64,000 nt of DNA from Escherichia phage vB_EcoM_G5211: the sequence record MK327947.1; one strand, given 5' to 3'. Positions 14,359-63,234 of this stretch are shown in pieces. Position 1 is the stretch's first letter. Each line of letters starts with the position of its first letter. Under the pieces are notes generated by a model that was given only the letters and a program-made list of their open reading frames with translations, did no database searches and was not told where the DNA came from. The position numbers and the translations under genes are program-made.

Positions 14359-16088
14359 ATGACGCATTAACATCATTTCGCGGGATGCGCAAGGAAGCGG
14401 AAGAAAACCCGATTGATAAACTTAACAAATTAGATAAACTTGATTCTATTGATAATTTGCAAGCCGCTACCGAATTGGTGGCAGAGACAGTAGAACAAAA
14501 ATCTAATGAAGTTGTTGGTGCGGTAGAGGATAACACCGCAGCCAATGAATTGACGGCAGAAAATACACAATCTACCGCTGGCAATACCCAAAAAACTTAT
14601 GAAGAATTGCAAAAACTCAATAATTTCTCTTCTCAGATGAATGAGAAATTACGTGGTTTTGGTGTTATGATGGAACGTAGATTTGGTGTTGTCAGTAAAA
14701 TGGCTAGCGGTATTGGTGCGATTGAAGAAGCACTGAAAAAACCGGAACAACCGCAAACAATGCCATCACCTCAGCCAGTTTTGCCTACTGTACCGGAACA
14801 GCCTAATAATGACAACTATCAAGGTCTTCCAAAGAAAAAACCGGATGTTGAGGAACGGAAGAAAAAGAACGCCGCAGATAAGCGCAATGCAGATTCTATG
14901 GAAAATCTTCTTAAAGTTGTTCGTGGAGGATTTAAAGAAACCATAGGTATCTCTAATAAGGTCTTAGGGATGTTATTTAAGATCACCTTGACCGCTATGG
15001 CAGAAGCCGCAAAATGGGGCGCTATTTTGATGGGTATTGTTTTTGCCATTGATACCCTTATGATTCATTTCAGATATTGGAGTGATTTATTCGAAACAAA
15101 ATTTGATGAATTTATGGATAAAGCCGGAGAATGGGCTGGACCAATTAGTGATATTCTAACAACTATTCGTCAAGTTCGAGATTATTGGTCTAAAGGCGAA
15201 TATGGAGAGTTAATTAAATCTCTTGTTATGGGTATTGGTGATGCATTCTATAAAACCTTTATCCAACTTGATCGAATTATCACTACTGGTATTGCTAAAA
15301 TTCTTCGCATGATCCCTGGTATGGGTGATTATGCCGATAAGTTAGAATATGGTGCTTTAAAATCTGCTGTCGCTCAAGGCTATACGCCAAATGAAAGAGA
15401 ACTCGAATTAATGGATAAGGTCGAGTCTGAACACGAAGAGGACAAATACGGGGAGCGTACTGGTTGGACCGGAAAAGCCCGTGATATTGGTGAGGCTATC
15501 GGTGACTCCATTAAAGATAAAGTTAACGAGGGTCTTGTTAGTCTGGGTTGGAGAGATCAAAAGGATGTTGACGCAGAGAAACGACAAGAAGAATTAAAAC
15601 GCGGGGAATATAAGTCTGTTTCTGCTGAACAACGATCTGCTAGTCGTAAACTTAGAATTAAAAGCGAGGGCGCGATCAATAATATTAATGAAGTTATGGA
15701 GAATTTGAGCGGTGACTATGACAAAGAAAGAATGGAAGAGTTGAAAAAGGATATTGATGTTTACCGTGAGCAAGTTCAAGATCCTACATTAGTTGAAAGT
15801 GATCGTTCTCAGTTAGAGCGTCTTATTGAAAAATTTGATGAGATGTATGCTGATAAAACTAAGGGTGCGGTTCCAACTAATCCTGTTCCTGCAACTGAAA
15901 CGGAAACAGCAAAACAAGCGGAACGTACTGAACAAATGCAGAAACAAGCTGCAATCCAGCAACAAACGACAAATCAGACCTCAAACGTAAATAATACACA
16001 AATTGTAACAAACAATAGAACTATTAAACAGGGTGCACCAACAACTAGAATTGATGCCCCCGGTACAATTAATATGGGGAACTTTTAA
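14355..16088 (+). CDS. 29: baseplate hub / tail length determinator gp29
   Basis: 577 aa; start overlaps gp28 stop (ATGA); position and size as T4 gp29. Confidence 0.85.
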   Translation: MNDALTSFRGMRKEAEENPIDKLNKLDKLDSIDNLQAATELVAETVEQKSNEVVGAVEDNTAANELTAENTQSTAGNTQKTYEELQKLNNFSSQMNEKLRGFGVMMERRFGVVSKMASGIGAIEEALKKPEQPQTMPSPQPVLPTVPEQPNNDNYQGLPKKKPDVEERKKKNAADKRNADSMENLLKVVRGGFKETIGISNKVLGMLFKITLTAMAEAAKWGAILMGIVFAIDTLMIHFRYWSDLFETKFDEFMDKAGEWAGPISDILTTIRQVRDYWSKGEYGELIKSLVMGIGDAFYKTFIQLDRIITTGIAKILRMIPGMGDYADKLEYGALKSAVAQGYTPNERELELMDKVESEHEEDKYGERTGWTGKARDIGEAIGDSIKDKVNEGLVSLGWRDQKDVDAEKRQEELKRGEYKSVSAEQRSASRKLRIKSEGAINNINEVMENLSGDYDKERMEELKKDIDVYREQVQDPTLVESDRSQLERLIEKFDEMYADKTKGAVPTNPVPATETETAKQAERTEQMQKQAAIQQQTTNQTSNVNNTQIVTNNRTIKQGAPTTRIDAPGTINMGNF

Positions 16089-17146
16089 TGAAAATTAGTG
16101 TTATCAATGATGCCGTTGATAGCTTTAAAGCGGGGGTTAAAACCTCCGCTGGTTTTACCTCAAAAAATAAAGGGAAAACATTAACCGCTCAATTCCCCGC
16201 TGAACGTGCTAGCGGTAATGATGCTAGCGGTTATTATATCAACGACTTATATAATAATGGTCTGTTATTCACTGCATACGATTATACATCTCGTACTACC
16301 GGATCGTTGCGTGATTTCAGGAAAAAGAAAAATGTTGCTAGCGGTTTTGGTGGTAGCGTTAATATCGCTGGTTTTGATTTAAATTTGGGTGGGAGAAATG
16401 CTGCATTTGACCGAGAGGCAATTGCTAATATTCTTCTTCCTCGTAGTCAATCTGACGTTGACGCTGCTAGCCATAAGTTTAATGATGTTGGTGAATCTGT
16501 CATTTCTCGCGGCGGTGGTACTTTAGGCGGTGCTCTTTCTAATATGGCATCTACTGCCGTTTTTGGTGGTATCGAAAGTATTACTGGTGGATACCTTGCC
16601 GACCACGGTGAACAGATTTATAATACTGCGCGAAGCATGTATGCGGGTGCTGACGCACGAACTAAAAACTACGTATGGCATTTAACCCCACGTAGTATTG
16701 AAGACCTTCGCAATATTCTGATCATATACGAAACGTTTTTAGAATTGTCTTATGGATCTAGTGGTATTTCCAGCACCGCAAAAGAATTAAAAGCGGAAGT
16801 TGATGCGTGGTATAAAAATACACTATTGAGAAAATCCACCCCAGAGGAAGCGAAGAGAAATGATACTCTGTTTGAAGGGATCACCGATTTTCTATCAAAC
16901 GCAATTACTGTATCTAACCCGACAATATGGATGATCTCTAACTTCGGTAAGCGTACATCGTTTGAAGGGCGTAGCGATGCATTTGGTCCCGCTCAGATCT
17001 CAAGTGTACGTCTGGACAAGTCGCCTGATGGTAAGTTTAATGGTCTTGCTATTTCTCCTAACTTGCCTAGTACATTTGTTCTGGAAGTATCATTTAGAGA
17101 GATCTTGACACTTTCCCGTGGTACTATATTTGGGAGTGCGGCATAA
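16088..17146 (+). CDS. 48: baseplate tail-tube junction protein gp48
   Basis: 352 aa, translationally coupled to gp29. Confidence 0.85.
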   Translation: MKISVINDAVDSFKAGVKTSAGFTSKNKGKTLTAQFPAERASGNDASGYYINDLYNNGLLFTAYDYTSRTTGSLRDFRKKKNVASGFGGSVNIAGFDLNLGGRNAAFDREAIANILLPRSQSDVDAASHKFNDVGESVISRGGGTLGGALSNMASTAVFGGIESITGGYLADHGEQIYNTARSMYAGADARTKNYVWHLTPRSIEDLRNILIIYETFLELSYGSSGISSTAKELKAEVDAWYKNTLLRKSTPEEAKRNDTLFEGITDFLSNAITVSNPTIWMISNFGKRTSFEGRSDAFGPAQISSVRLDKSPDGKFNGLAISPNLPSTFVLEVSFREILTLSRGTIFGSAA

Positions 17147-18078
17147 TGTTTGATTTAAATGACTTTAACGAACAAGCCGCTAACCTTGACTTTCAGCGAT
17201 CTAACTTATTCAGCGTGGCATTTGCCACCACTCCAAGTAATAAGACACAAGCGATCCTAGAAAGTATGGGCGGTGCGGTATATGATATTATACCAAATGC
17301 ATTAAATGACTATTTCGGGATTACTCGTGGTGATTATACTGACGCATTAACAAATCTTGCTGTACAGGGTGTTAGGCGTGCTGTTGATTCATCCGGTGTC
17401 AAAAAGTATCTTTTAGGTGCAATGTCATCCCGCGTAGTTCAATCTCTTCTGGGGCAATTTGATGTTGGTACATATGCGCTTGACTGGTTCAATATGGCAT
17501 ATAAGACAAGCGGTCTTCTGGTGTATGCTGTTAAGGTTCCAGAAAACAGATTGAATTATGAAATGGACCGTAACCACAATGCGCCAAACATTCGAATTAC
17601 CGGACGTGATTTTGATCCGCTTGTATTGAGCTTTAGAATGGACTCTAGCGCATCAAACTATAGAGCAATGCAGGATTGGGTTAACTCAGTAGAAGACCCC
17701 GTGACAGGGCTTCGTGCGCTTCCTGTTGACGTTGAAGCAGATATTCAGGTTAACTTACATAACCGAATGGGAGTTCCTCACACAATCATGATGTTTAATG
17801 GTTGTGTTCCTGTTGGTGTGAGTGCACCGGAATTAACCTATGAAAACAACAACGAAATTACAACATTCGATGTTACTTTTGCGTATAGGACTATGCAAAC
17901 TGGTGCTGTAGGAGAGCAAGCCGCGCGAGAATGGATTGAGGATAAGGCAATAAACGCAATAACAAACACTTTCGGCAATAATTTACTTGATAGTGGGTTA
18001 TCTGCTGCTGGTAATGCTTTATCGCGTCTAAATGGCGTTGGTGGGCGTGTGGTGAATACTGTCACTAACTGGTTCTGA
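17146..18078 (+). CDS. 54: baseplate tail-tube initiator gp54
   Basis: 310 aa, translationally coupled to gp48. Confidence 0.85.
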   Translation: MFDLNDFNEQAANLDFQRSNLFSVAFATTPSNKTQAILESMGGAVYDIIPNALNDYFGITRGDYTDALTNLAVQGVRRAVDSSGVKKYLLGAMSSRVVQSLLGQFDVGTYALDWFNMAYKTSGLLVYAVKVPENRLNYEMDRNHNAPNIRITGRDFDPLVLSFRMDSSASNYRAMQDWVNSVEDPVTGLRALPVDVEADIQVNLHNRMGVPHTIMMFNGCVPVGVSAPELTYENNNEITTFDVTFAYRTMQTGAVGEQAAREWIEDKAINAITNTFGNNLLDSGLSAAGNALSRLNGVGGRVVNTVTNWF

Positions 18079-18087
18079 TAAGCGAAA

Positions 18088-18116
18088 GGCGGGGATTATC
18101 CCCGCCTTTTTATTTT
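18088..18116 (+). terminator. intrinsic terminator after gene 54 (probably bidirectional)
   Basis: GGCGGGG-attat-CCCCGCC followed by TTTTTATTTT. Confidence 0.6.
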
Positions 18117-18595
18117 GCTAAATCATTGCAATATTTTAGTGCCTTAGTTTGAAATTCTGCGCTGTTAAGTTCTTCATAACGGTCATAATCACCGTTTAAT
18201 GCTGCTTTTCTTGCTTCTTGCTCTATCTGCATGTCAGACATGATAATACAGCGATCCCGCGCTTTCATCTTCTCAAGTTGTATAGACTCTTCTTTCTGCT
18301 TGCGCAATTCTTCTTGACGCTTCTTTTCTTCTTGTGCTTTCTCTTCCCGCGCTTCTTTGATTGCATCCTTGAACATCTGCGTTTGTGGTGCTAAACCAAC
18401 TTTAACTCGATCTACGTCTCGACGTTCCATTTTAGAAATAAAGCATGATTCGATCTGATCATCACTTGCATATGCTGCTTTACATTCACGAAGCAAGAAA
18501 ACCGGATCTGATTTAGCATTCATCATAGCTTCCATGTTGGCACAACCAGTAAGCATGAATGCAGCCGCAAGACCAATCAGTTTAATCATTTTCAT
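18110..18595 (-). CDS. predicted lipoprotein (161 aa)
   Basis: N-terminus MKMIKLIGLAAAFMLTGC has a signal peptide and lipobox; start overlaps the upstream stop (ATGA). Confidence 0.65.
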   Translation of the reverse strand: MKMIKLIGLAAAFMLTGCANMEAMMNAKSDPVFLLRECKAAYASDDQIESCFISKMERRDVDRVKVGLAPQTQMFKDAIKEAREEKAQEEKKRQEELRKQKEESIQLEKMKARDRCIIMSDMQIEQEARKAALNGDYDRYEELNSAEFQTKALKYCNDLAK

Positions 18596-19416
18596 TTAGT
18601 CACCTCACCGAAAATTGTAAATTGTCTACGATTCTCATCGCCGAAAGATTCTACTACGTCGTTTACCTTGACGCAAGTCCCGCGCGGTAAAATTACTTCA
18701 CATTCGCAAGGGTTCCATGCAATGGACCCAACAACAAAACCTTTATGATCTTTTACATCAATCACCCATGATACATTACAAGAATGTTGCATCTTTCCGG
18801 TCATGGATTCATATCGATTCTCACAATAAAGGCTAGTGCTGTTTGATAGCCAGCCTCCAAAGATGATCGGTGTCATGCTGGTCGATACAAAGTTTTTAAA
18901 GGTAAACTCCTTATCTTCAATGATACGCTCTATTGTCTGAATGTCAAGATGTTGACCGCGATAAAGAGTACCGTTTAACTTTTCGGTTTTATCCATGACG
19001 CAATCCATCAAATCGACAATCTCTGATATCTCATCGGTCATGTCTTCTTCCCCTAAGAGAGCACCATTTACCCATTCGTATTGCTCAGACACATAATCAC
19101 AGATTGCATTATATTCTGCTGGGGTTATGTTGTTATGTTTGTAATGTTTGAATACATTATCTCCAAAGTCTTCGGAGTGTACTTCATACATCACATTAAT
19201 GATTTTCTTGACAAATCCATAATCTTGTGTCTCACGCTCAAGGAAGCGGATAACCTTCACATAATCATCAAAGTTAATCTGATCGCTGATCATCTCAGTG
19301 ATCATGTAACCATTAATACCCTCAATGTCATATGTTTCGATGTAATTATCCATACGTTCCATCATTGATTCGCGTGATTCTTCTGAAAGACGAAAATCCT
19401 GTAATTTCTTGAACAT
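18592..19416 (-). CDS. ADP-ribosyltransferase, Alt paralog (274 aa)
   Basis: C-terminal FVSTS..IFGGW..ECEVILPRG parallels the Alt catalytic region (YVSTS..IFGGW..ECEILLPRG); GGGAGG RBS. Confidence 0.7.
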   Translation of the reverse strand: MFKKLQDFRLSEESRESMMERMDNYIETYDIEGINGYMITEMISDQINFDDYVKVIRFLERETQDYGFVKKIINVMYEVHSEDFGDNVFKHYKHNNITPAEYNAICDYVSEQYEWVNGALLGEEDMTDEISEIVDLMDCVMDKTEKLNGTLYRGQHLDIQTIERIIEDKEFTFKNFVSTSMTPIIFGGWLSNSTSLYCENRYESMTGKMQHSCNVSWVIDVKDHKGFVVGSIAWNPCECEVILPRGTCVKVNDVVESFGDENRRQFTIFGEVTK

Positions 19417-19430
19417 TTTAAACCTCCCAT

Positions 19431-19468
19431 ATAACAGAAAACGGGGCTAGTATAAAACTAGTCCCCGT
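19431..19468 (-). terminator. hairpin with U-run downstream of alt
   Basis: ACGGGGCTAGT..ACTAGTCCCCGT inverted repeat followed by a U-rich run on the - strand. Confidence 0.5.
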
Positions 19469-19494
19469 TTGAGTCAACCATTATTTCTTAAAAA

Positions 19495-21546
19495 TTACAT
19501 TTTAAATTTATCTGGCATTGCGTCTACAGATACCAGATCAGCGATAAGCTGACGTAGAGTTGCCTTATCTGCTTTCTTACGTTCGGTTTTAGCTTCGCTA
19601 ATGAAGCTGGAGAAAGACAGGTCAGAAGCAGGTTTAATAACACCTTCACGGATGAATGCATCACCGTCCGCGATCATCTCGCCAGATTCTTGTAATGCTG
19701 CCAGTTCATTTTTGTTCATAATATGTGCCTCAATGTAATAAGTTTCTTGTGAATCCGTCGATGCCGTAGCACGAGTTACCGTATCAAAGGATAACACAAC
19801 ACCGCGAGGAAGTAAAATCTCGCATTCTTTGTAAGCAAATGCTTTGTTACCTACTGGCAATACAGGGATGTTTTCCGCGCCAGCAATGGAGAAAGCAACA
19901 TTAGCGCCACCTTCACCGCGAGAGCCAGCCATAGAATCAACACCAGCAACGGCACTAGCCACGTTTGCATTCCAGCCGCCAAAAATGTTAGGTGCAAGGG
20001 AAGTGCTCACATAGTTTTTAAAGTAAAACGCTTTTTGCTTACGTGCAGTTTCCCACATTTGCGACCGGAAGTCCATACCACGATACAGAATAGTACCCGG
20101 ATCAAGTTTAACGCCATAGTTGGAGAAGGCATTATCCAGTGCATCGCACATCTTGACCAATTCTTCTGGATCTGCGATGCCTTCAAACTCTTCCAGCTTA
20201 CGGTCGGTTAGGAAGTTGTTCATATTGATGTATGCTGCATCGGCATATTCGCTCAACACAAAACCTTCCGCGCCCGGCAGATCAAGATCAATATCTGCCA
20301 TCATTTCACCCATGTTGCTAGCAATTGCTTCAAACATACCGGAAGCAACATTACGTAGGGCATCGGTTTTAATCTGGGTGATGTGACTACGCAGCATTTC
20401 AGCTTTTACATCTGCTGGCATAGACTGGTCTACTCGATCCATTGCCAGGGCGGTGATCTTGTTTTCGAATACTTCCTCGCTCATGATTTCTTTTAAGCGT
20501 TTGATTGATGCTGCGATAACTTCCGCAGACAATGGATCATATTGATCCTGAACTTTTACCAGTTCGCTTACTGCGTATTTTGCATCGGCTTCGCTTTCAA
20601 AAATAGTACGCATGAAACCATAGCGAGTGATAATATCACTTGTCCAGTCATTCAGAGAACGGGCGGTTGAACGTTCTAAGGCTTGACGATCAATCAGAGT
20701 ATTAAACTGTTTCTTAGGTTCGGCTTCGGTGATATCTTCTTCCGGTTTAAGATTAATTTTTTCTGGATGATTCACATAGTCGCTGTTATAGGTCGCTTGA
20801 GTTTTCAGCATTTCTTCTTTAGTCAAACGAGATTTAGCCGCTACGCGTTGTTCTGCTTCCGCGTTTCGTTCTTCTTCTGACACAAGACTAGCCGCATATG
20901 CCTCATCTTTAGTCAGAGATTCACCAGTAGCCTTAGATACCCAGCGATCACCTAAATCACTTTCTACTTTAGTGAACAAGGATTCATCAAGTTTAATCCC
21001 TTTAATCTTATCAATCGCCATCCCGCGACGCTTGACAACAACTAAAGCGATCTTTTTGCTGGTCATTACTTCCTGCTGGAATACTTCAAACTTCGGTGTA
21101 CGACGCACCAAACGCTCTATAACGCGCTTAACCAGTTCGGTCTTACCTTTCATGCGGGATACGTTAAAACGGAACATAACAGCGTCTAATTGCGCTTTAC
21201 GGGCTGTTTCCATAACCACATCAAAAGCACTTGACATAACTGCAATCGGGTTATCGCCTAGACCATTTTTAAGCTGTACAATACGACCGCTTTTGTTCAT
21301 TTCGCACAGTACAACATGTGCGGTCTTGTCACCCATACGAATGATTTTAGGTGTTTTGTTGGTGAAGTTACAAAGACGGACAATCACATCTTTATCGCGT
21401 GTCTGTACTGCAAAAAGCTGTTTAGGATTCTGCTTAGGCTTTAAGCACTGTACCGGAGCAATACTGCCAAAGTTTTCTTCCTCTTCCGTCAACAGCCATT
21501 TCTCGAAAGATTCAATCATTAGATCGTCGATTTCTAAGTTAAACAT
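19495..21546 (-). CDS. alt: Alt ADP-ribosyltransferase
   Basis: 683 aa (T4 Alt is ~682 aa); C-terminal ART motifs; AGAGGA RBS. Confidence 0.9.
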   Translation of the reverse strand: MFNLEIDDLMIESFEKWLLTEEEENFGSIAPVQCLKPKQNPKQLFAVQTRDKDVIVRLCNFTNKTPKIIRMGDKTAHVVLCEMNKSGRIVQLKNGLGDNPIAVMSSAFDVVMETARKAQLDAVMFRFNVSRMKGKTELVKRVIERLVRRTPKFEVFQQEVMTSKKIALVVVKRRGMAIDKIKGIKLDESLFTKVESDLGDRWVSKATGESLTKDEAYAASLVSEEERNAEAEQRVAAKSRLTKEEMLKTQATYNSDYVNHPEKINLKPEEDITEAEPKKQFNTLIDRQALERSTARSLNDWTSDIITRYGFMRTIFESEADAKYAVSELVKVQDQYDPLSAEVIAASIKRLKEIMSEEVFENKITALAMDRVDQSMPADVKAEMLRSHITQIKTDALRNVASGMFEAIASNMGEMMADIDLDLPGAEGFVLSEYADAAYINMNNFLTDRKLEEFEGIADPEELVKMCDALDNAFSNYGVKLDPGTILYRGMDFRSQMWETARKQKAFYFKNYVSTSLAPNIFGGWNANVASAVAGVDSMAGSRGEGGANVAFSIAGAENIPVLPVGNKAFAYKECEILLPRGVVLSFDTVTRATASTDSQETYYIEAHIMNKNELAALQESGEMIADGDAFIREGVIKPASDLSFSSFISEAKTERKKADKATLRQLIADLVSVDAMPDKFKM

Positions 21547-21579: not shown

Positions 21580-21607
21580 TATTTATGAAAAGGGGGCTTA
21601 ACGCCCC
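21580..21607 (-). terminator. hairpin GGGGC-guuaa-GCCCC with U-run (- strand)
   Basis: Sits between the stop of 21613..21825 and the alt RBS; same hairpin recurs at 25614. Confidence 0.5.
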
Positions 21608-22145: not shown

Positions 22146-22664
22146 TTAGTTATTTTTTAATTGCTCATCTTGCAATAGGGCAATCACATGCTGGCGATGT
22201 TCTTCCGATTGAGGAACACCGAAAAAGTTTGTTTTGTAGAAATACTCTAATCGGTCTTCTCGTGTGCTCTCTTCCATCATGATCGCGGGTAGTCCGAGAT
22301 TTCGGAAACGTCGCTTTTCTGCTGGCGTAAAATCACTGTAATACAACATAGAATCATCATTACCAGCAATGCTAAACTCATCATTCATGAAGGAGAATAT
22401 TGCGTTTAAACGCTGTTTACCGTCCACGATTTCGATCTCATAGCGAGAGCCATCATCAATCTTAGCCATTGCGATAGCACCAACCGGAAAATCATTAATC
22501 AGGTTTTCGATAAACATACGTTTGTTTTCGGTGTCCCATACCAAAGGACGCTGATAATCTGGGTTCATGTTGATATAGCCATCTTCTAACCATGCATCAT
22601 AAACAGAGATGACAAAGTTTTTAGTATTGGTATAGTAACGGCGTTTAGGCGTTAAACGGTTCAT
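22146..22664 (-). CDS. DUF262 / ParB-like (DGQQR-type) domain protein
   Basis: PDYQRPLVWD ... IVDGKQRLNAI matches the DUF262 N-terminal signature; internal ATG abuts the stop of the upstream ORF. Confidence 0.7.
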   Translation of the reverse strand: MNRLTPKRRYYTNTKNFVISVYDAWLEDGYINMNPDYQRPLVWDTENKRMFIENLINDFPVGAIAMAKIDDGSRYEIEIVDGKQRLNAIFSFMNDEFSIAGNDDSMLYYSDFTPAEKRRFRNLGLPAIMMEESTREDRLEYFYKTNFFGVPQSEEHRQHVIALLQDEQLKNN

Positions 22665-22665
22665 G

Positions 22666-22995
22666 TTATAGTCTCCTGAATGGATCATCACGTAAATCAA
22701 TATCTTTTAAGAACTCATCCCATGAATGGCGGATATTGTTCTTAATTCTCCAGATAAGCGCAGGGATTGAACGCTCTCCCATCTGGAAGTAAGGATCATA
22801 TGATCCGTATGCCCAATATGCTACTACAATTCCACAGTCAGCGCAATAGTATTCTATTTCACTTGCTGGCGACCAAAGTCCATCAATATGATCAGTGATC
22901 TTGCTTTCGATGTTATGACTATGACAATCAGGGCAACGGATGCAATGACCTTGTTTATCGTAATTTGACGTTAGAGAATACTTAAACAATCTCAT
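22666..22995 (-). CDS. zinc-ribbon (CxxC..CxxC) protein
   Basis: CIRCPDC .. CADCG cysteine pairs; start overlaps the stop of the methyltransferase-like gene by 1 nt. Confidence 0.65.
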   Translation of the reverse strand: MRLFKYSLTSNYDKQGHCIRCPDCHSHNIESKITDHIDGLWSPASEIEYYCADCGIVVAYWAYGSYDPYFQMGERSIPALIWRIKNNIRHSWDEFLKDIDLRDDPFRRL

Positions 22996-23711
22996 TATAG
23001 ATCCTTATTGGCTTCAAATACTGCCTTTGCGAATCCTCGCGGGGTAAGTGACCTGATAGTCTTTGTTCTGGTTCCTTTCCCGCCTAGCTTAGAATGCTGT
23101 TTACTGTACCCTTTATTAATCTGCAACGGTTTCTTTTCTGGCATTATAAAGCCTTGTCCGGTCCATAAGCAAGTCTTTTTCGGGTACATATCACGGGCGG
23201 CAATATACTCAGGAAACGTAGGATGCTTATCATCTTCCGGCAAATAACCGCCATATTCCCACGGATGGAACATGTAATCAGGCTTACGCCACATACTAGA
23301 GATAACGCTTACAGGATTCTCTATCATGTAGGGAACTCCTAGCCATTCACCCAAATAAGCGGTTATTTTAGCTGTCCGTACATCATGAACTTGAATCAAT
23401 GGTCCTTGTTCTCGTTTCTTTCGTTCAAAGTGTGCAGCGCCACTAACAGCTAAATTGGTGCACGGTGGGAATGCAAAGATAATATCCGGTTTCCCCCATT
23501 CAAGGTCCATTGCTCTTTCCAGCCAGTTCAAATCAATCCAGGTGTTTACATAAGTAATGTTTGGATGTTCAAATCTGGTATTATACTTTTTGTATGTACC
23601 GTGGTCGGCGTCATCCGCATTAAAGCAGACTACCTTATGACCTGCTTTAGCCCATTCTAGCCCCATTATCCCCGATCCGTCAAAGTTGCAGAATATTAAT
23701 TTTTGTTTCAT
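22995..23711 (-). CDS. SAM-dependent C5-cytosine-methyltransferase-like protein (238 aa)
   Basis: FDGSGIMG (motif I-like), FPPCTNLAVSG (PC motif IV-like), MIENPVS (ENV-like), SLTPRGFAKAV; AGGGTGG RBS. Confidence 0.6.
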   Translation of the reverse strand: MKQKLIFCNFDGSGIMGLEWAKAGHKVVCFNADDADHGTYKKYNTRFEHPNITYVNTWIDLNWLERAMDLEWGKPDIIFAFPPCTNLAVSGAAHFERKKREQGPLIQVHDVRTAKITAYLGEWLGVPYMIENPVSVISSMWRKPDYMFHPWEYGGYLPEDDKHPTFPEYIAARDMYPKKTCLWTGQGFIMPEKKPLQINKGYSKQHSKLGGKGTRTKTIRSLTPRGFAKAVFEANKDL

Positions 23712-31866: not shown

Positions 31867-32744
31867 TAAAATTCTCCGTAGTTAACCTGAAAACATTCTA
31901 CACCAATTGAGCGGTACATGTCAACCACTTGATCACGGTCATCTACCGCCAAAACAACATGATAACGCGGTGCAATTTCAGAGAAGAAGATCTCTTTCTT
32001 CACTTCATGATCAGGACGACGATCATTAGTTTCACGTTGAAAGTGATCACTAGGTTCAATACCCTGTTCACGCAACCATTGCAGAGTATCTTCTTCGCAA
32101 ACATCCTCACGCCCTGAGCATGTGATGATACGATAGCCATTATCACGATACAGTTTAAGCATTTCGACCACTTGCGGACGCGGTTTATCTTCTTTGACCT
32201 TTGTCCAGTCAAACGGATGACGACCGCCCTTATCCGCTAATGTCCCATCAATATCAAAGATCACTGCCTTTGGCAGCATGGTATTCGGTTTGTATACTTC
32301 TTGACCCATATATTCCTGCATCAGATAAAATTGGTTGCGCAAATGAGAAAGTGGAATTGCTTTCTCGCCGCGATAGAAATTACGTTTCTTTAGTGTCTCA
32401 AATGATTCATTGAACACTTGTTCAGTATACACCGCGTTAAATTCTTTTGCAAGTTCTTTGTAGAATACACGATGTTTTTCTTTCAGGTTGGTATCGGAGA
32501 TAATGATACTCAATCCGCGTGATAGAGTCTCACGAGCAATCATTCTCTGAATAGACTCTACCAGCTTTTCTTTTTCCTTAGTATACTTGTATTTCAAATG
32601 TGAGTCAACACCAAACAACATAAGACGAAGATCATCACGATTCACATTACGATAATTACTAAACCGTTTACACGTTTCCATAGCCCATGTAGTTTTACCG
32701 GACCCAGAACAACCAACGGTTAAAATCACTTCACATTTCGGCAT
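31866..32744 (-). CDS. pseT: polynucleotide 5'-kinase/3'-phosphatase
   Basis: From the internal ATG with AAGGAGAA RBS; P-loop GCSGSGKTT and HAD motif VIFDIDGTLAD. Confidence 0.85.
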   Translation of the reverse strand: MPKCEVILTVGCSGSGKTTWAMETCKRFSNYRNVNRDDLRLMLFGVDSHLKYKYTKEKEKLVESIQRMIARETLSRGLSIIISDTNLKEKHRVFYKELAKEFNAVYTEQVFNESFETLKKRNFYRGEKAIPLSHLRNQFYLMQEYMGQEVYKPNTMLPKAVIFDIDGTLADKGGRHPFDWTKVKEDKPRPQVVEMLKLYRDNGYRIITCSGREDVCEEDTLQWLREQGIEPSDHFQRETNDRRPDHEVKKEIFFSEIAPRYHVVLAVDDRDQVVDMYRSIGVECFQVNYGEF

Positions 32745-33196
32745 TATTTCTCCTTCGGTTTGCACCGTTCCTCATTAAGTTCTTTTCGATAATAACACAT
32801 GATCAACTTACTTTCAAGTGTATATCTCTTAATATCCGCAAGCCAGACTCTGAATTTTTGGGAGTCCTCCCACGACATAGAAACTCTAGGTTTACCGTCT
32901 ATTGTATCCACTTTCAGGTCAATGTCAACTTTTTCTATTGGTGCTGGTAGTTGAGGATGTAATTTCGGTTCCTGTGAATACTGGTCCATTGTACACGAAG
33001 AAAGAGCAAATACAATAGGTACAGCGAAGACATGGATTATGGCGGTCTGAAAATTCTTATGTGCTTTCTTAAACATCCAGTGTATCACGAAAATTGAAAA
33101 CACCATCAGGATAATAATGCTTGCACCTATCCCCAGATAATCAACCAGATTAAAATTGCTTATCTGCTCTTGCGTAGGCAATATTTCTATGCTCAT
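32744..33196 (-). CDS. membrane protein with internal lipoprotein signal; candidate o-spanin (pseT.2-like)
   Basis: AAGGAGG RBS at 33196; internal MFKKAHKNFQTAIIHVFAVPIVFALSSC has a lipobox; start overlaps the upstream stop (ATGA). Confidence 0.45.
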   Translation of the reverse strand: MSIEILPTQEQISNFNLVDYLGIGASIIILMVFSIFVIHWMFKKAHKNFQTAIIHVFAVPIVFALSSCTMDQYSQEPKLHPQLPAPIEKVDIDLKVDTIDGKPRVSMSWEDSQKFRVWLADIKRYTLESKLIMCYYRKELNEERCKPKEK

Positions 33197-63174: not shown

Positions 63175-63234
63175 TTTGATTCTCCTTCGTTGTCTTGATG
63201 AGTTTAGTATAGGGGATCGCCGATCCCCTGTCAA
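63175..63234 (-). promoter_or_regulatory. early promoter plus stem-loop cassette (PeSL-like)
   Basis: TTGACA-17-TATACT with GGGGATC-gcc-GATCCCC palindrome. Confidence 0.6.

Follow-up and report, generated by a model that had tools for sequence, protein, structure and literature searches.

Gene organization of the alt region

The window examined here, a stretch of 64,000 nucleotides from Escherichia phage vB_EcoM_G5211 (MK327947.1), belongs to an RB49-like (Krischvirus) T4-type coliphage and is 98.9% identical to RB49. Sequence comparison identifies the locus as the alt region of such a phage. Three genes follow one another on the minus strand: alt (19495–21546), encoding a full-length Alt-like ADP-ribosyltransferase (ART) of 683 aa that corresponds to RB49p184 alt; a gene for a 274-aa Alt paralog, here called ART2 (18592–19416), whose RB49 counterpart is RB49p183; and a gene for a 161-aa predicted lipoprotein (18110–18595). 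The region containing them is 98.8–99.4% identical to 58 Krischvirus genomes, and the order alt–ART2–lipoprotein–gene 54 is kept in 8/8 further lineages with contigs reaching that far.

A sequence-only reading of this DNA had described two ARTs in tandem together with a coupled lipoprotein gene; the five features that it named (ORFs, shared motifs, ATGA overlap, lipobox, and hairpin) were all found where it had placed them. The tandem arrangement is not a new observation: RB49p183 carries the RefSeq note 'similar to C-terminal part of T4 Alt protein', and RB49ORF183c, which is ART2, was named as an alt paralog by Nolan et al. (2006). With the tandem alt duplicate already published and the lipoprotein already annotated in related phage records (as 'putative lipoprotein' in that of phage W115), the finding is real and largely ordinary.

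ART2 corresponds to the catalytic half of Alt

Profile searches matched Alt to phrog_802, 'Alt-like RNA polymerase ADP-ribosyltransferase' (E = 1.9e-179), and ART2 to phrog_15144 (E = 2.6e-198). Both proteins matched Pfam PF03496 (gathering score 23.4 bits), ART2 with 59.3 bits and Alt with 37.3 bits over residues 425–610. A BLASTP alignment of ART2 residues 151–257 with Alt residues 487–593 (37% identity, E = 1e-16) contains the motifs YRG, STS, IFGGW, ECE, and LPRG in both proteins, confirming that the C-terminus of the 274-aa protein repeats the Alt catalytic motifs. The R / S-T-S / E-x-E catalytic residues are intact in both members of the tandem, which upholds their designation as two ARTs. 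In ART2 these residues are Arg-153, Ser-178-Thr-179-Ser-180, and Glu-238-Cys-Glu-240; they are invariant across six lineages and present in two more, down to 30% identity. The predicted fold of ART2, modeled with moderate confidence (pLDDT 68), matches the C3, Vis, and Certhrax ARTs with E values of about 1e-9. No BLASTP similarity was found between ART2 and ModA or ModB, whereas matches to Alt proteins had E values of 1e-16 to 1e-24. By sequence, then, ART2 is classified as an Alt-family protein.

The N-terminus of ART2 had been described as unrelated to Alt, a description that the more sensitive comparisons refute. Profile–profile comparison with hhalign equated ART2 residues 50–273 with Alt residues 379–610 (probability 99.9%, E = 1.4e-33), and the PHROG Alt profile spans ART2 residues 8–268. 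Because of these two results, ART2 is taken to be, in essence, Alt reduced to its C-terminal catalytic half: it is homologous to Alt residues 379–610, has identical R / STS / ExE residues, and lacks the N-terminal region of ~380 residues and a C-terminal tail of ~70 residues. Among precomputed Pfam hits, the N-terminal Alt domain PF26846 occurs on Alt only.

ART2 lies directly downstream of alt, a position shared with the T2 and T4 duplicates. In T2, alt is present as two full-length genes; in T4, the duplicate is broken into two small ORFs, alt.-1 and alt.-2, which are what is left of the first part of alt; one metagenomic lineage carries a split second alt copy; and the tandem alt duplicates ORF187c/188c of the T4-like phage 44RR are among the closest known systems. 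These gene arrangements mark the alt locus as prone to duplication, and homology indicates that an old tandem alt duplication left ART2 as a second, intact gene. The broken T4 equivalent invites the view that ART2 is likewise a functionless, decaying remnant, but ART2 is intact and retains the catalytic part, in contrast to T4 alt.-1/alt.-2, which retain the first part of alt. Its ORF is full-length in the 58 genomes and in eight diverged lineages, its catalytic residues are invariant, its dN/dS is 0.03, and it has its own promoter, described below, and a strong Shine-Dalgarno sequence (GGGAGG, 19423–19428, minus strand), read 6 nt upstream of the ATG. Decay of ART2 is, on these grounds, extremely improbable. 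Alt has a dN/dS of 0.02 (versus L027), and purifying selection is strong on both ART genes.

A promoter-early stem-loop between alt and ART2

Between alt and ART2, on the minus strand, we recognized a promoter-early stem-loop (PeSL; 19432–19477) from its promoter, its fold, and its recurrence in eight lineages. The promoter consists of a -35 box, TTGACT (19477–19472), and a -10 box, TATACT (19454–19449), separated by a 17-nt spacer and with 10/12 consensus matches. The hairpin (19441–19468), ACGGGG-A-CUAGU / UUUAU / ACUAG-CCCCGU, is followed by UUUCUGUU with a U-rich tail (19440–19432), and the -10 box falls within its loop and 3' arm. As a local element the hairpin has a folding energy of -20.6 kcal/mol, and in its 106-nt context it reaches z = -2.3 against shuffles. 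The element had been described as a hairpin attenuator separating alt from the downstream pair; the hairpin is present, but that description is incomplete, as the hairpin lies within a sigma-70-type promoter.

The known counterpart is the composite promoter–terminator PeSL cassette of RB49 and phi1 (Arbiol et al. 2010; Comeau et al. 2014), in which elements of this design have strong, demonstrated promoter and terminator activity (PMC2839356). Like these cassettes, the element has an AT-rich stretch and a sigma-70 promoter close to consensus (17-nt spacer), and its -10 box is overlapped by a G(n)-loop-C(n) stem-loop, with a Shine-Dalgarno sequence and ATG following. It differs in its boxes, TTGACT/TATACT rather than TTGACA/TATAAT, and in its position between two conserved genes, whereas known PeSLs lie beside an ORFan. 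Further classic PeSL copies lie elsewhere in the window (63234, 27782, and 22138).

A promoter with an overlapping hairpin was present at the alt–ART2 junction in 8/8 lineages examined. Across the six alignable lineages, 98.5% of hairpin cells pair, compared with 35–50% in slid controls, and two stem pairs show compensatory change. In L024 and L026 another hairpin occupies this position; because the L024 version has no U tract, the terminator function may not be universal across lineages. The promoter boxes are kept while the hairpin sequence itself varies: the -35 box is TTGACT in the window and L017 and TTGACA elsewhere, the -10 box is TATACT in six lineages, TAGAAT in L024, and TATGAT in L026, and the spacer is 17 nt in 8/8 lineages.

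An alternative would be a leaky attenuator only, with unused promoter hexamers and with ART2 and the lipoprotein expressed late by read-through from alt. The strength of the hairpin with its U tract would suit this, as would the frequency of promoter-like matches in the AT-rich region, which is no higher than in shuffled sequence (13 observed vs 11.1 expected). Against it stand the retention of the -35 box and spacer in every lineage despite the change in hairpin sequence, and the proven promoter and terminator strength of the RB49/phi1 elements. We regard this alternative as unlikely; most likely, to judge from the promoter motifs, ART2 and the lipoprotein have their own early promoter.

The lipoprotein gene and its alleles

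The minus strand reads GGTGAGGTGACTAAATGAAAATG at the junction of ART2 and the lipoprotein gene, so that the ART2 TGA (18594–18592) overlaps the lipoprotein ATG (18595–18593), and the reported ATGA overlap (18592–18595) and close coupling of the two genes are thereby confirmed. The lipoprotein gene also has its own Shine-Dalgarno sequence. Its product begins with MKMIKLIGLAAAFM-LTGC, bearing out the proposed lipobox with Cys-18 (codon 18544–18542) and with Ala at +2. The lipobox Gly-Cys and Cys-38, Cys-51, Cys-116, and Cys-156 are invariant in 17 lipoprotein sequences, and the AlphaFold model (pLDDT 87.7) of the mature protein is all-helical, with a 62-residue helix and the four invariant Cys residues. 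A bidirectional terminator hairpin (18084–18110), found by terminator scan with a 12-bp stem GAAAGGCGGGGAT-TAT-CCCCGCCTTTT, is common to the lipoprotein gene (minus strand) and the converging gene 54 (plus strand); a GC hairpin occupies this junction in 5/5 other lineages with contigs reaching there.

The lipoprotein matches phrog_16112, a family of unknown function, and the family has only 10 representatives among 1.84 billion proteins. A weak PHROG match to the Cor family (E = 0.0074) covers the signal-peptide region only, and no individual segment of it is significant by itself. The protein resembles T5 Llp and Cor (T1/phi80/N15) in being a small lytic-phage lipoprotein predicted to be early, and differs from these exclusion lipoproteins in its mature domain, for which neither sequence nor fold relatives were found. 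Our best guess at its role would be an early envelope function, for example superinfection exclusion or receptor masking. Its long helix recalls some lysis proteins and could suggest the outer-membrane spanin of the lysis system. A separate lipoprotein ORF (32744–33076), however, matches an Rz-like spanin family (phrog_812, E = 1e-32), and the 161-aa protein has no match to the spanin families in PHROG, which leaves a spanin role hardly credible.

Two lipoprotein types, 27–30% identical, occur among the 58 genomes, type A in 50 and type B in eight. In phage Whisky, ART2 is 99.6% identical (tblastn) and the lipoprotein 34% identical (global alignment), and seven more genomes carry the same diverged type. 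A recombination breakpoint lies at ~18566, in the signal-peptide codons, and dS rises from 0.18–0.33 in alt and ART2 to 0.8–1.0 in the lipoprotein, gp54, and gp48. The lipoprotein dN/dS of 0.10 does not indicate positive selection. This pattern identifies deeply diverged lipoprotein alleles that, as read from the sequences, were swapped by recombination independently of ART2.

These data bear on the suggestion that the two products work together, ART2 as a toxin-like ART and the lipoprotein as its cognate immunity protein, or both as an exclusion module that depends on the ART; translational coupling would then fix their ratio. Within each lineage the genes do overlap or lie directly next to each other (an ATGA overlap in the window, L017, and L024; overlaps of 1 nt in L003 and 8 nt in L016; a 1-nt gap in L012 and L026), and the lipoprotein family is found only downstream of ART2 genes. 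Yet the overlap carries little weight because 11/89 adjacent gene pairs in the first 50 kb of RB49, or 12%, overlap by 4 nt (30/89 overlap to any extent), and conserved gene order is usual in T4-like core regions. ART2 and the lipoprotein do not co-vary, since near-identical ART2 coexists with diverged lipoprotein types, whereas co-variation is what one would expect of a cognate immunity protein; the lipoprotein is thus, on its allele pattern, not the cognate immunity partner of ART2. The two proteins also fall in different predicted compartments, because ART2 has a hydrophilic N-terminus without a signal peptide and the lipoprotein is predicted to be exported. A functional pair is therefore very unlikely, and the proposed immunity or exclusion partnership is not borne out.

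Proposed expression and lifestyle of the two ARTs

Upstream of alt, the minus strand carries a late-promoter-like box of putative function, CATAAATA (21580–21587), 27 nt from the ATG, which matches the T4-type late consensus TATAAATA at 7/8 positions. It occurs once in the window; TATAAATA boxes precede other start codons at comparable distances. The terminator scan also returned a terminator-like GC hairpin, GGGGCGTTAAGCCCC followed by CTTTTC (21593–21607, minus strand), and a terminator upstream of alt is kept in 5/6 T4-like genomes (Nolan et al. 2006).

The explanation that we favor, with moderate confidence, combines an alt duplication, an early ART2–lipoprotein operon driven by the PeSL, and a lipoprotein that is not the cognate partner of ART2. 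Transcripts from alt, whose timing we infer to be late from its 7/8 box, would end at the PeSL hairpin. Host RNA polymerase would start early transcripts ~7 nt downstream of the -10 box, within the 3' arm of the hairpin; because these would lack the complete hairpin, they would continue across ART2 and the lipoprotein gene as far as the bidirectional terminator shared with gene 54. The promoter motifs thus point to an early operon for the two genes, with a sigma-70-type promoter at ART2 in place of the late box of alt. The lipoprotein would be exported and lipidated at Cys-18, and the Ala at +2 would direct it to the outer membrane.

T4 Alt is an NAD:arginine ADP-ribosyltransferase that is packaged in the head and then injected. 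Alt of the window would likewise be made late, packaged, and injected, and ART2 would be a non-packaged, early-made intracellular enzyme. Alternatively, ART2 could be a capsid-packaged protein, as Alt and the internal proteins are, its leader being a capsid-targeting sequence cut by the gp21 prohead protease, and act as a second injected ART. The sequence at the ART2 N-terminus, MFKKLQDFRLSE|E, is similar to the MKTYQEFIAE| leader of T4 IPIII, and its last residues form an L-x-E protease-type site. An [LI]xE motif lies within the first 13 residues in 5/6 ART2 lineages, compared with 13% of 70 window ORFs (first 15 residues), but the motif is short and the lineages are related, so that the 5/6 count is not independent. 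A leader of 10 residues suffices for packaging in T4, where Alt is shortened by only ~7 residues at its N-terminus (PMC9026906); Alt orthologs of the ART2 lineages also begin with MF and an acidic, hydrophobic stretch of ~12 residues. Conversely, leaders of this kind are absent from all other ORFs in about 157 kb of Krischvirus sequence, which leaves no internal-protein family for comparison; ART2 has a sigma-70 promoter, with no late-promoter box found, and lacks the Alt N-terminal domain. We therefore consider packaging of ART2 quite unlikely.

As the non-packaged, early enzyme of the favored explanation, ART2 would resemble T4 ModA and ModB in lifestyle, being small, without a packaging domain, and predicted early, while differing from them as a member of the Alt family with no detectable sequence similarity to either. 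The 4-nt overlap of ART2 with the lipoprotein gene is like that of T4 modB/modA. RB49 has a single mod gene, and Krischviruses have only one, compared with two in T4.

Tandem ADP-ribosyltransferase genes downstream of alt

The two tandem ADP-ribosyltransferase (ART) genes and the lipoprotein gene that the sequence-only reading had described were found as ORFs on the minus strand where it had placed them; alt (19495-21546, 683 aa), ART2 (18592-19416, 274 aa), and the lipoprotein gene (18110-18595, 161 aa) correspond to RB49p184, RB49p183, and RB49p182, respectively. Together they converge on the baseplate/tail-tube genes 29, 48, and 54. This 3.7-kb region is 98.8-99.4% identical to that of 58 deposited Krischvirus genomes, including RB49, phi1, JSE, GEC-3S, and W115. 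In RB49, ART2 is annotated as [quoted passage not shown]. The 161-aa product is listed as hypothetical in RB49, and W115 has it as a "putative lipoprotein". Paralogous alt duplications have been reported as RB49ORF183c, 44RRORF188c, and T4 alt.-1/alt.-2 (Nolan et al. 2006, PMC1524935). The tandem ARTs are therefore real and already annotated and published, and the hairpin between them is of a regulatory-cassette type that was already known. A literature search returned no virion proteome or transcriptome for Krischvirus. Our analysis adds a conserved putative early promoter for ART2, strong constraint on ART2, and a gene order alt-ART2-lipoprotein that is kept in each of the eight further lineages with contigs long enough to show it. 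It also adds a dimorphism of lipoprotein alleles, which speaks against the two products being cognate.

ART2 corresponds to the catalytic half of Alt

Both proteins scored above the gathering cut-off (23.4 bits) of PF03496 (ADPrib_exo_Tox; C3/VIP2/Alt group), ART2 with 59.3 bits and Alt with 37.3 bits. BLASTP aligned ART2 151-257 with Alt 487-593 at 37% identity, and this stretch contains the YRG, STS, IFGGW, ECE, and LPRG motifs, bearing out the proposal that ART2 repeats the catalytic motifs of Alt. Residues Arg-153, Ser-178-Thr-179-Ser-180, and Glu-238-x-Glu-240 of ART2 align with Arg-489, Ser-514-Thr-515-Ser-516, and Glu-574-x-Glu-576 of Alt, respectively. They do not vary among six lineages with identities as low as 42%, and also occur in two more, L024 and L026, with BLASTP identities of 31% and 45%. 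The catalytic glutamate pair, which the sequence-only reading had singled out for careful alignment, is retained among them. A predicted model of ART2 (pLDDT 68) matched C3bot2, Vis, Certhrax, and iota toxin (E ~1e-9, probability 1.00). Family score, catalytic residues, and modelled fold all place ART2 among the R-S-E type ADP-ribosyltransferases, with a predicted ART fold.

The similarity extends well beyond the motifs. The PHROG profile of Alt, phrog_802, spans ART2 residues 8-268 (E=3.2e-45), and profile-profile alignment with hhalign paired ART2 50-273 with Alt 379-610 (probability 99.9%, E=1.4e-33), so the N-terminus of ART2 is not unrelated to Alt, as had been suggested. In the precomputed Pfam hits, all Alt genes carried PF26846 (Tevenvirinae_ADPRT, the N-terminal Alt domain), and the ART2 genes had only PF03496. 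Compared with Alt proper (~660-700 aa), ART2 shares homology to the catalytic region but lacks the N-terminal Alt region. Pairwise dN/dS against L027, a related 170-kb metagenomic phage, was 0.02 for alt and 0.03 for ART2, and ART2 identity does not fall below 97% across the 58 Krischvirus genomes. By these comparisons, ART2 is the conserved catalytic half of Alt, a predicted enzyme under strong constraint. Among cultured phages the short form was found only in the 58 Krischvirus records, and it occurs in addition in a handful of diverged metagenomic lineages; a search of IMG/VR for further diverged loci gave just two near-identical Krischvirus contigs.

T4 ARTs are of current interest: ModB links RNA onto host proteins, and Alt modifies host RNA polymerase. 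We considered that ART2 could be a relocated ModA or ModB, and rejected this for lack of sequence similarity. In the alignment against Alt, ModA, and ModB that had been called for, ART2 aligned with Alt; BLASTP gave no match to T4 ModA or ModB, and against RB49 ModB it covered 23 residues at E=2.2. The mod gene of RB49 itself matched ModB at E=2e-9. RB49 has one mod gene, closest to ModB, and T4 has two. ART2 could show whether RB49-like phages substitute an Alt derivative for one Mod enzyme, and, as a catalytic-domain-only form, it would be a convenient small protein for studying target choice in the Alt family.

A promoter-early stem-loop between alt and ART2

The intergenic region between alt and ART2 (19432-19477, minus strand) carries the sigma-70-type sequence TTGACT-17-TATACT, with 10/12 matches and a 17-nt spacer; it is preceded by the AT-rich AATTTTTAAGAAATAATGG and followed by the Shine-Dalgarno sequence GGGAGG and then ATG. 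Interlaced with it is a hairpin with an 11-bp stem containing one bulge (-20.6 kcal/mol), followed by UUUCUGUU, such that the -10 box straddles the loop and the hairpin 3' arm, taking three bases from the end of the former and three from the start of the latter. The hairpin reported earlier as an attenuator thus exists between the two genes; being interlaced with a sigma-70-type promoter, it is better described as part of a promoter-early stem-loop (PeSL). The PeSLs described in RB49 and phi1 combine a strong early promoter with a stem-loop terminator that often overlaps the -10 box (Arbiol et al. 2010, PMC2839356; PMC4122927). The alt-ART2 element shares that design, a near-consensus promoter layout overlapped by a stable G(n)-loop-C(n) stem-loop, and is a predicted member of the class; its activities are predicted from the promoter and terminator activity shown experimentally for other copies (PMC2839356; PMC4122927).

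The hairpin could be aligned in six lineages, namely the window and L017, L012, L014, L003, and L016, whose ART2 proteins are 42-83% identical to that of the window. Each of them retains a -35 box, which is TTGACT in the window and L017 and TTGACA in the other four, together with a spacer of 17 nt, TATACT, the hairpin, and the U tract. Stem pairing holds in 98.5% of the cells of this alignment, against 35-50% when the partner is slid, and two stem pairs covary, changing on both sides. In two more distant lineages a promoter is retained at this position, although the hairpin sequence differs.

Three PeSLs of the classic RB49 type, TTGACA-GGGG..loop..CCCC-TATAAT, lie elsewhere on the minus strand of the window, with the first base of the -35 box at 63234 (where the -10 box is TATACT), 27782, and 22138. 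In L026 (1504-1570), the ART2 start chosen by the gene caller (ATGATG) falls in the PeSL hairpin loop. The true start is likely Met13 (MFSVDW...), which restores a PeSL with TTGACA-17-TATGAT and an ACGGAG...CTCCGT stem.

Expression of the three genes is likely separated in time. Upstream of alt, at 21580-21607 (minus strand), a GC hairpin is followed by CATAAATA, 27 nt before the alt ATG; this box is unique in the window and is spaced like the TATAAATA boxes ahead of other start codons there. The element looks like a terminator followed by a putative variant late promoter. It carries the sole [TC]ATAAATA in the region, none being present between alt and ART2, and ART2 differs from Alt proper in lacking such a late-promoter box. 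From its upstream box, alt would be a late gene, consistent with T4 Alt being a packaged head protein (PMC9026906). ART2 and the lipoprotein gene would be transcribed early from the PeSL, by transcripts that start inside the hairpin 3' arm, would therefore not be terminated there, and would run on to the bidirectional terminator at 18084-18110.

Packaging of ART2 in the capsid through an N-terminal targeting leader would also bring it into the host. Its N-terminus, MFKKLQDFRLSE, resembles the capsid-targeting sequence of T4 internal proteins (MKTYQEFIAE) and ends in a prohead-protease-type L-x-E site, and five of six ART2 lineages have a site of this type within the first 13 residues, compared with 13% of the window ORFs within the first 15. 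However, among the ORF N-termini in ~157 kb of Krischvirus sequence a similar leader was seen just in ART2 and, loosely, in ModB, so that this sequence offers no internal-protein family for comparison, and the regulatory signals of ART2 indicate early expression. We regard packaging as improbable, and early synthesis of ART2 from the PeSL as the preferred reading.

The 161-aa protein is a predicted lipoprotein

At the junction of ART2 and the lipoprotein gene the minus strand reads GGTGAGGTGACTAAATGAAAATG, with a GAGG box 7 nt upstream of the lipoprotein ATG, and the ART2 TGA shares bases with this ATG, confirming the reported ATGA overlap. Such an overlap says little about a partnership: 4-nt overlaps are seen at 11 of the 89 junctions between neighbouring genes in the first 50 kb of RB49. 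The N-terminus of the encoded protein, MKMIKLIGLAAAFMLTGC, fits a basic n-region (MKMIK), a hydrophobic h-region (LIGLAAAFM), and a lipobox (LTG-C18) of the form [LVI][ASTVI][GAS]C, as the sequence-only reading had noted for LTGC. Signal peptide and lipobox are conserved, and Gly-17-Cys-18 and four further cysteines are invariant in 17 lipoprotein sequences. The protein fits a bacterial-type lipoprotein with predicted lipidation. In E. coli, the +2 sorting rule relates the residue after the cysteine to the membrane in which a lipoprotein resides; here this residue is Ala, Ser, or Val, which predicts an outer-membrane location.

An AlphaFold model of the lipoprotein (pLDDT 87.7) is all-helical with one 62-residue helix, and a structure search gave no informative structural neighbour or fold relative. 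The family is tiny, with ten representatives in 1.84 billion proteins, and every member whose context was examined lies between the ART2 gene and gene 54. Compared with the Cor/Llp exclusion lipoproteins, the mature domain of the 161-aa protein is without sequence or fold similarity. The Cor PHROG matched weakly (E=0.0074), over residues 1-45 in the signal-peptide region only, and no stretch passed; this sole database hint at exclusion was not counted as evidence. A role at the envelope, such as exclusion or receptor masking, is possible for the lipoprotein. An identity as the outer-membrane spanin was considered and rejected, as the spanin-family match belongs to another ORF (32744-33076, minus strand), which encodes a 110-aa spanin lipoprotein that matches Rz-like spanin phrog_812 (E=1e-32) and is rich in proline downstream of the lipobox Cys.

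Allelic dimorphism of the lipoprotein and its relation to ART2

Comparison of the 58 Krischvirus genomes disclosed two lipoprotein types: 50 carry an allele at least 95% identical to that of the window and eight carry one with 27-30% identity, with none between. RB49 is of the former type (A), Whisky and E26 of the latter (B). In phage Whisky, an ART2 99.6% identical to that of the window is followed by a lipoprotein with 34% identity; DNA identity is 96-100% across ART2 and ~40-50% from ~18566 on, within the signal-peptide codons. Against L027, dS rises from 0.18-0.33 in alt/ART2 to 0.8-1.0 in the lipoprotein, gp54, and gp48, and the pairwise dN/dS of the lipoprotein is 0.10 with saturated dS. 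The low dN/dS together with the jump in dS indicates that the lipoprotein divergence stems from recombinational exchange of old alleles, each under purifying selection. Positive selection was considered for the lipoprotein and is not demonstrable at a dN/dS of 0.10 with saturated dS.

Gene 54 (17146-18078, plus strand) and gene 48 (16088-17146) are more diverged than alt/ART2 among otherwise near-identical Krischviruses, gp54 showing 87-94% protein identity and a dS of ~0.8 compared with 0.18-0.33. Their divergence, set against the conserved alt/ART2, therefore places a mosaic boundary at the ART2/lipoprotein junction.

A cognate immunity or partner protein is expected to co-vary with its enzyme. 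The suggestion that the lipoprotein is such a partner of ART2 does not agree with the Whisky pair or with the diverged allele in eight of 58 genomes: the enzyme is constant while the lipoprotein is swapped. The two products are also predicted in different compartments, as ART2 has no signal peptide and the lipoprotein is predicted to be exported. With neither co-variation nor a shared compartment, a toxin-immunity pair is improbable, and the two genes are better taken as a conserved, probably early, bicistronic unit.

A more specific reading, which we consider rather unlikely, is an early "take-over plus envelope" operon, in which ART2 would take the part that ModA has in T4 or act on a new target and the lipoprotein would be an allele-switching outer-membrane factor, for example a superinfection-exclusion or receptor-masking protein previously unrecognised in T4-like phages; competition among related phages would maintain its two deeply diverged types. 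A dimorphic envelope gene like that of the lipoprotein is rare in a phage genus that is nearly clonal otherwise. Many coliphages used in therapy belong to Krischvirus, and if the lipoprotein governs exclusion between related phages, it would be relevant to phage-cocktail design.

Duplications and accessory genes around alt

The alt locus is a duplication hotspot. The annotation of T4 describes alt.-1/alt.-2 as a duplicate, now broken, that covers the first part of alt. With ~1,800 matches to ART2 spread over ~1,200 phage records, genomes with two Alt-like regions are common. T2 (L022, 650-4804) has two tandem full-length alt genes of 697 and 685 aa. In L006 (3086-7248), a related metagenomic lineage, the second copy is in two pieces, an ORF of 273 aa with the N-terminal domain and one of 415 aa with the ART domain, which share 4 nt.

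In T4 (L021, 2243-2533), the slot that separates the alt duplicate from gene 54 is occupied by alt.-3 (DUF5498), which is unrelated to the lipoprotein. C-terminal extension mutants of Alt.-3 allow T4 to escape the CmdTAC defence system (PMC11618068). With alt.-3 in T4 and the lipoprotein gene here, the slot is a site of accessory genes in either phage group. Upstream of alt, among small uncharacterised ORFs, lie genes for a DUF262/GmrSD_N-like protein and a DNA methyltransferase (22146-22700 and 22995-23711, both minus strand); a GmrSD-like domain carried by a phage is unusual.
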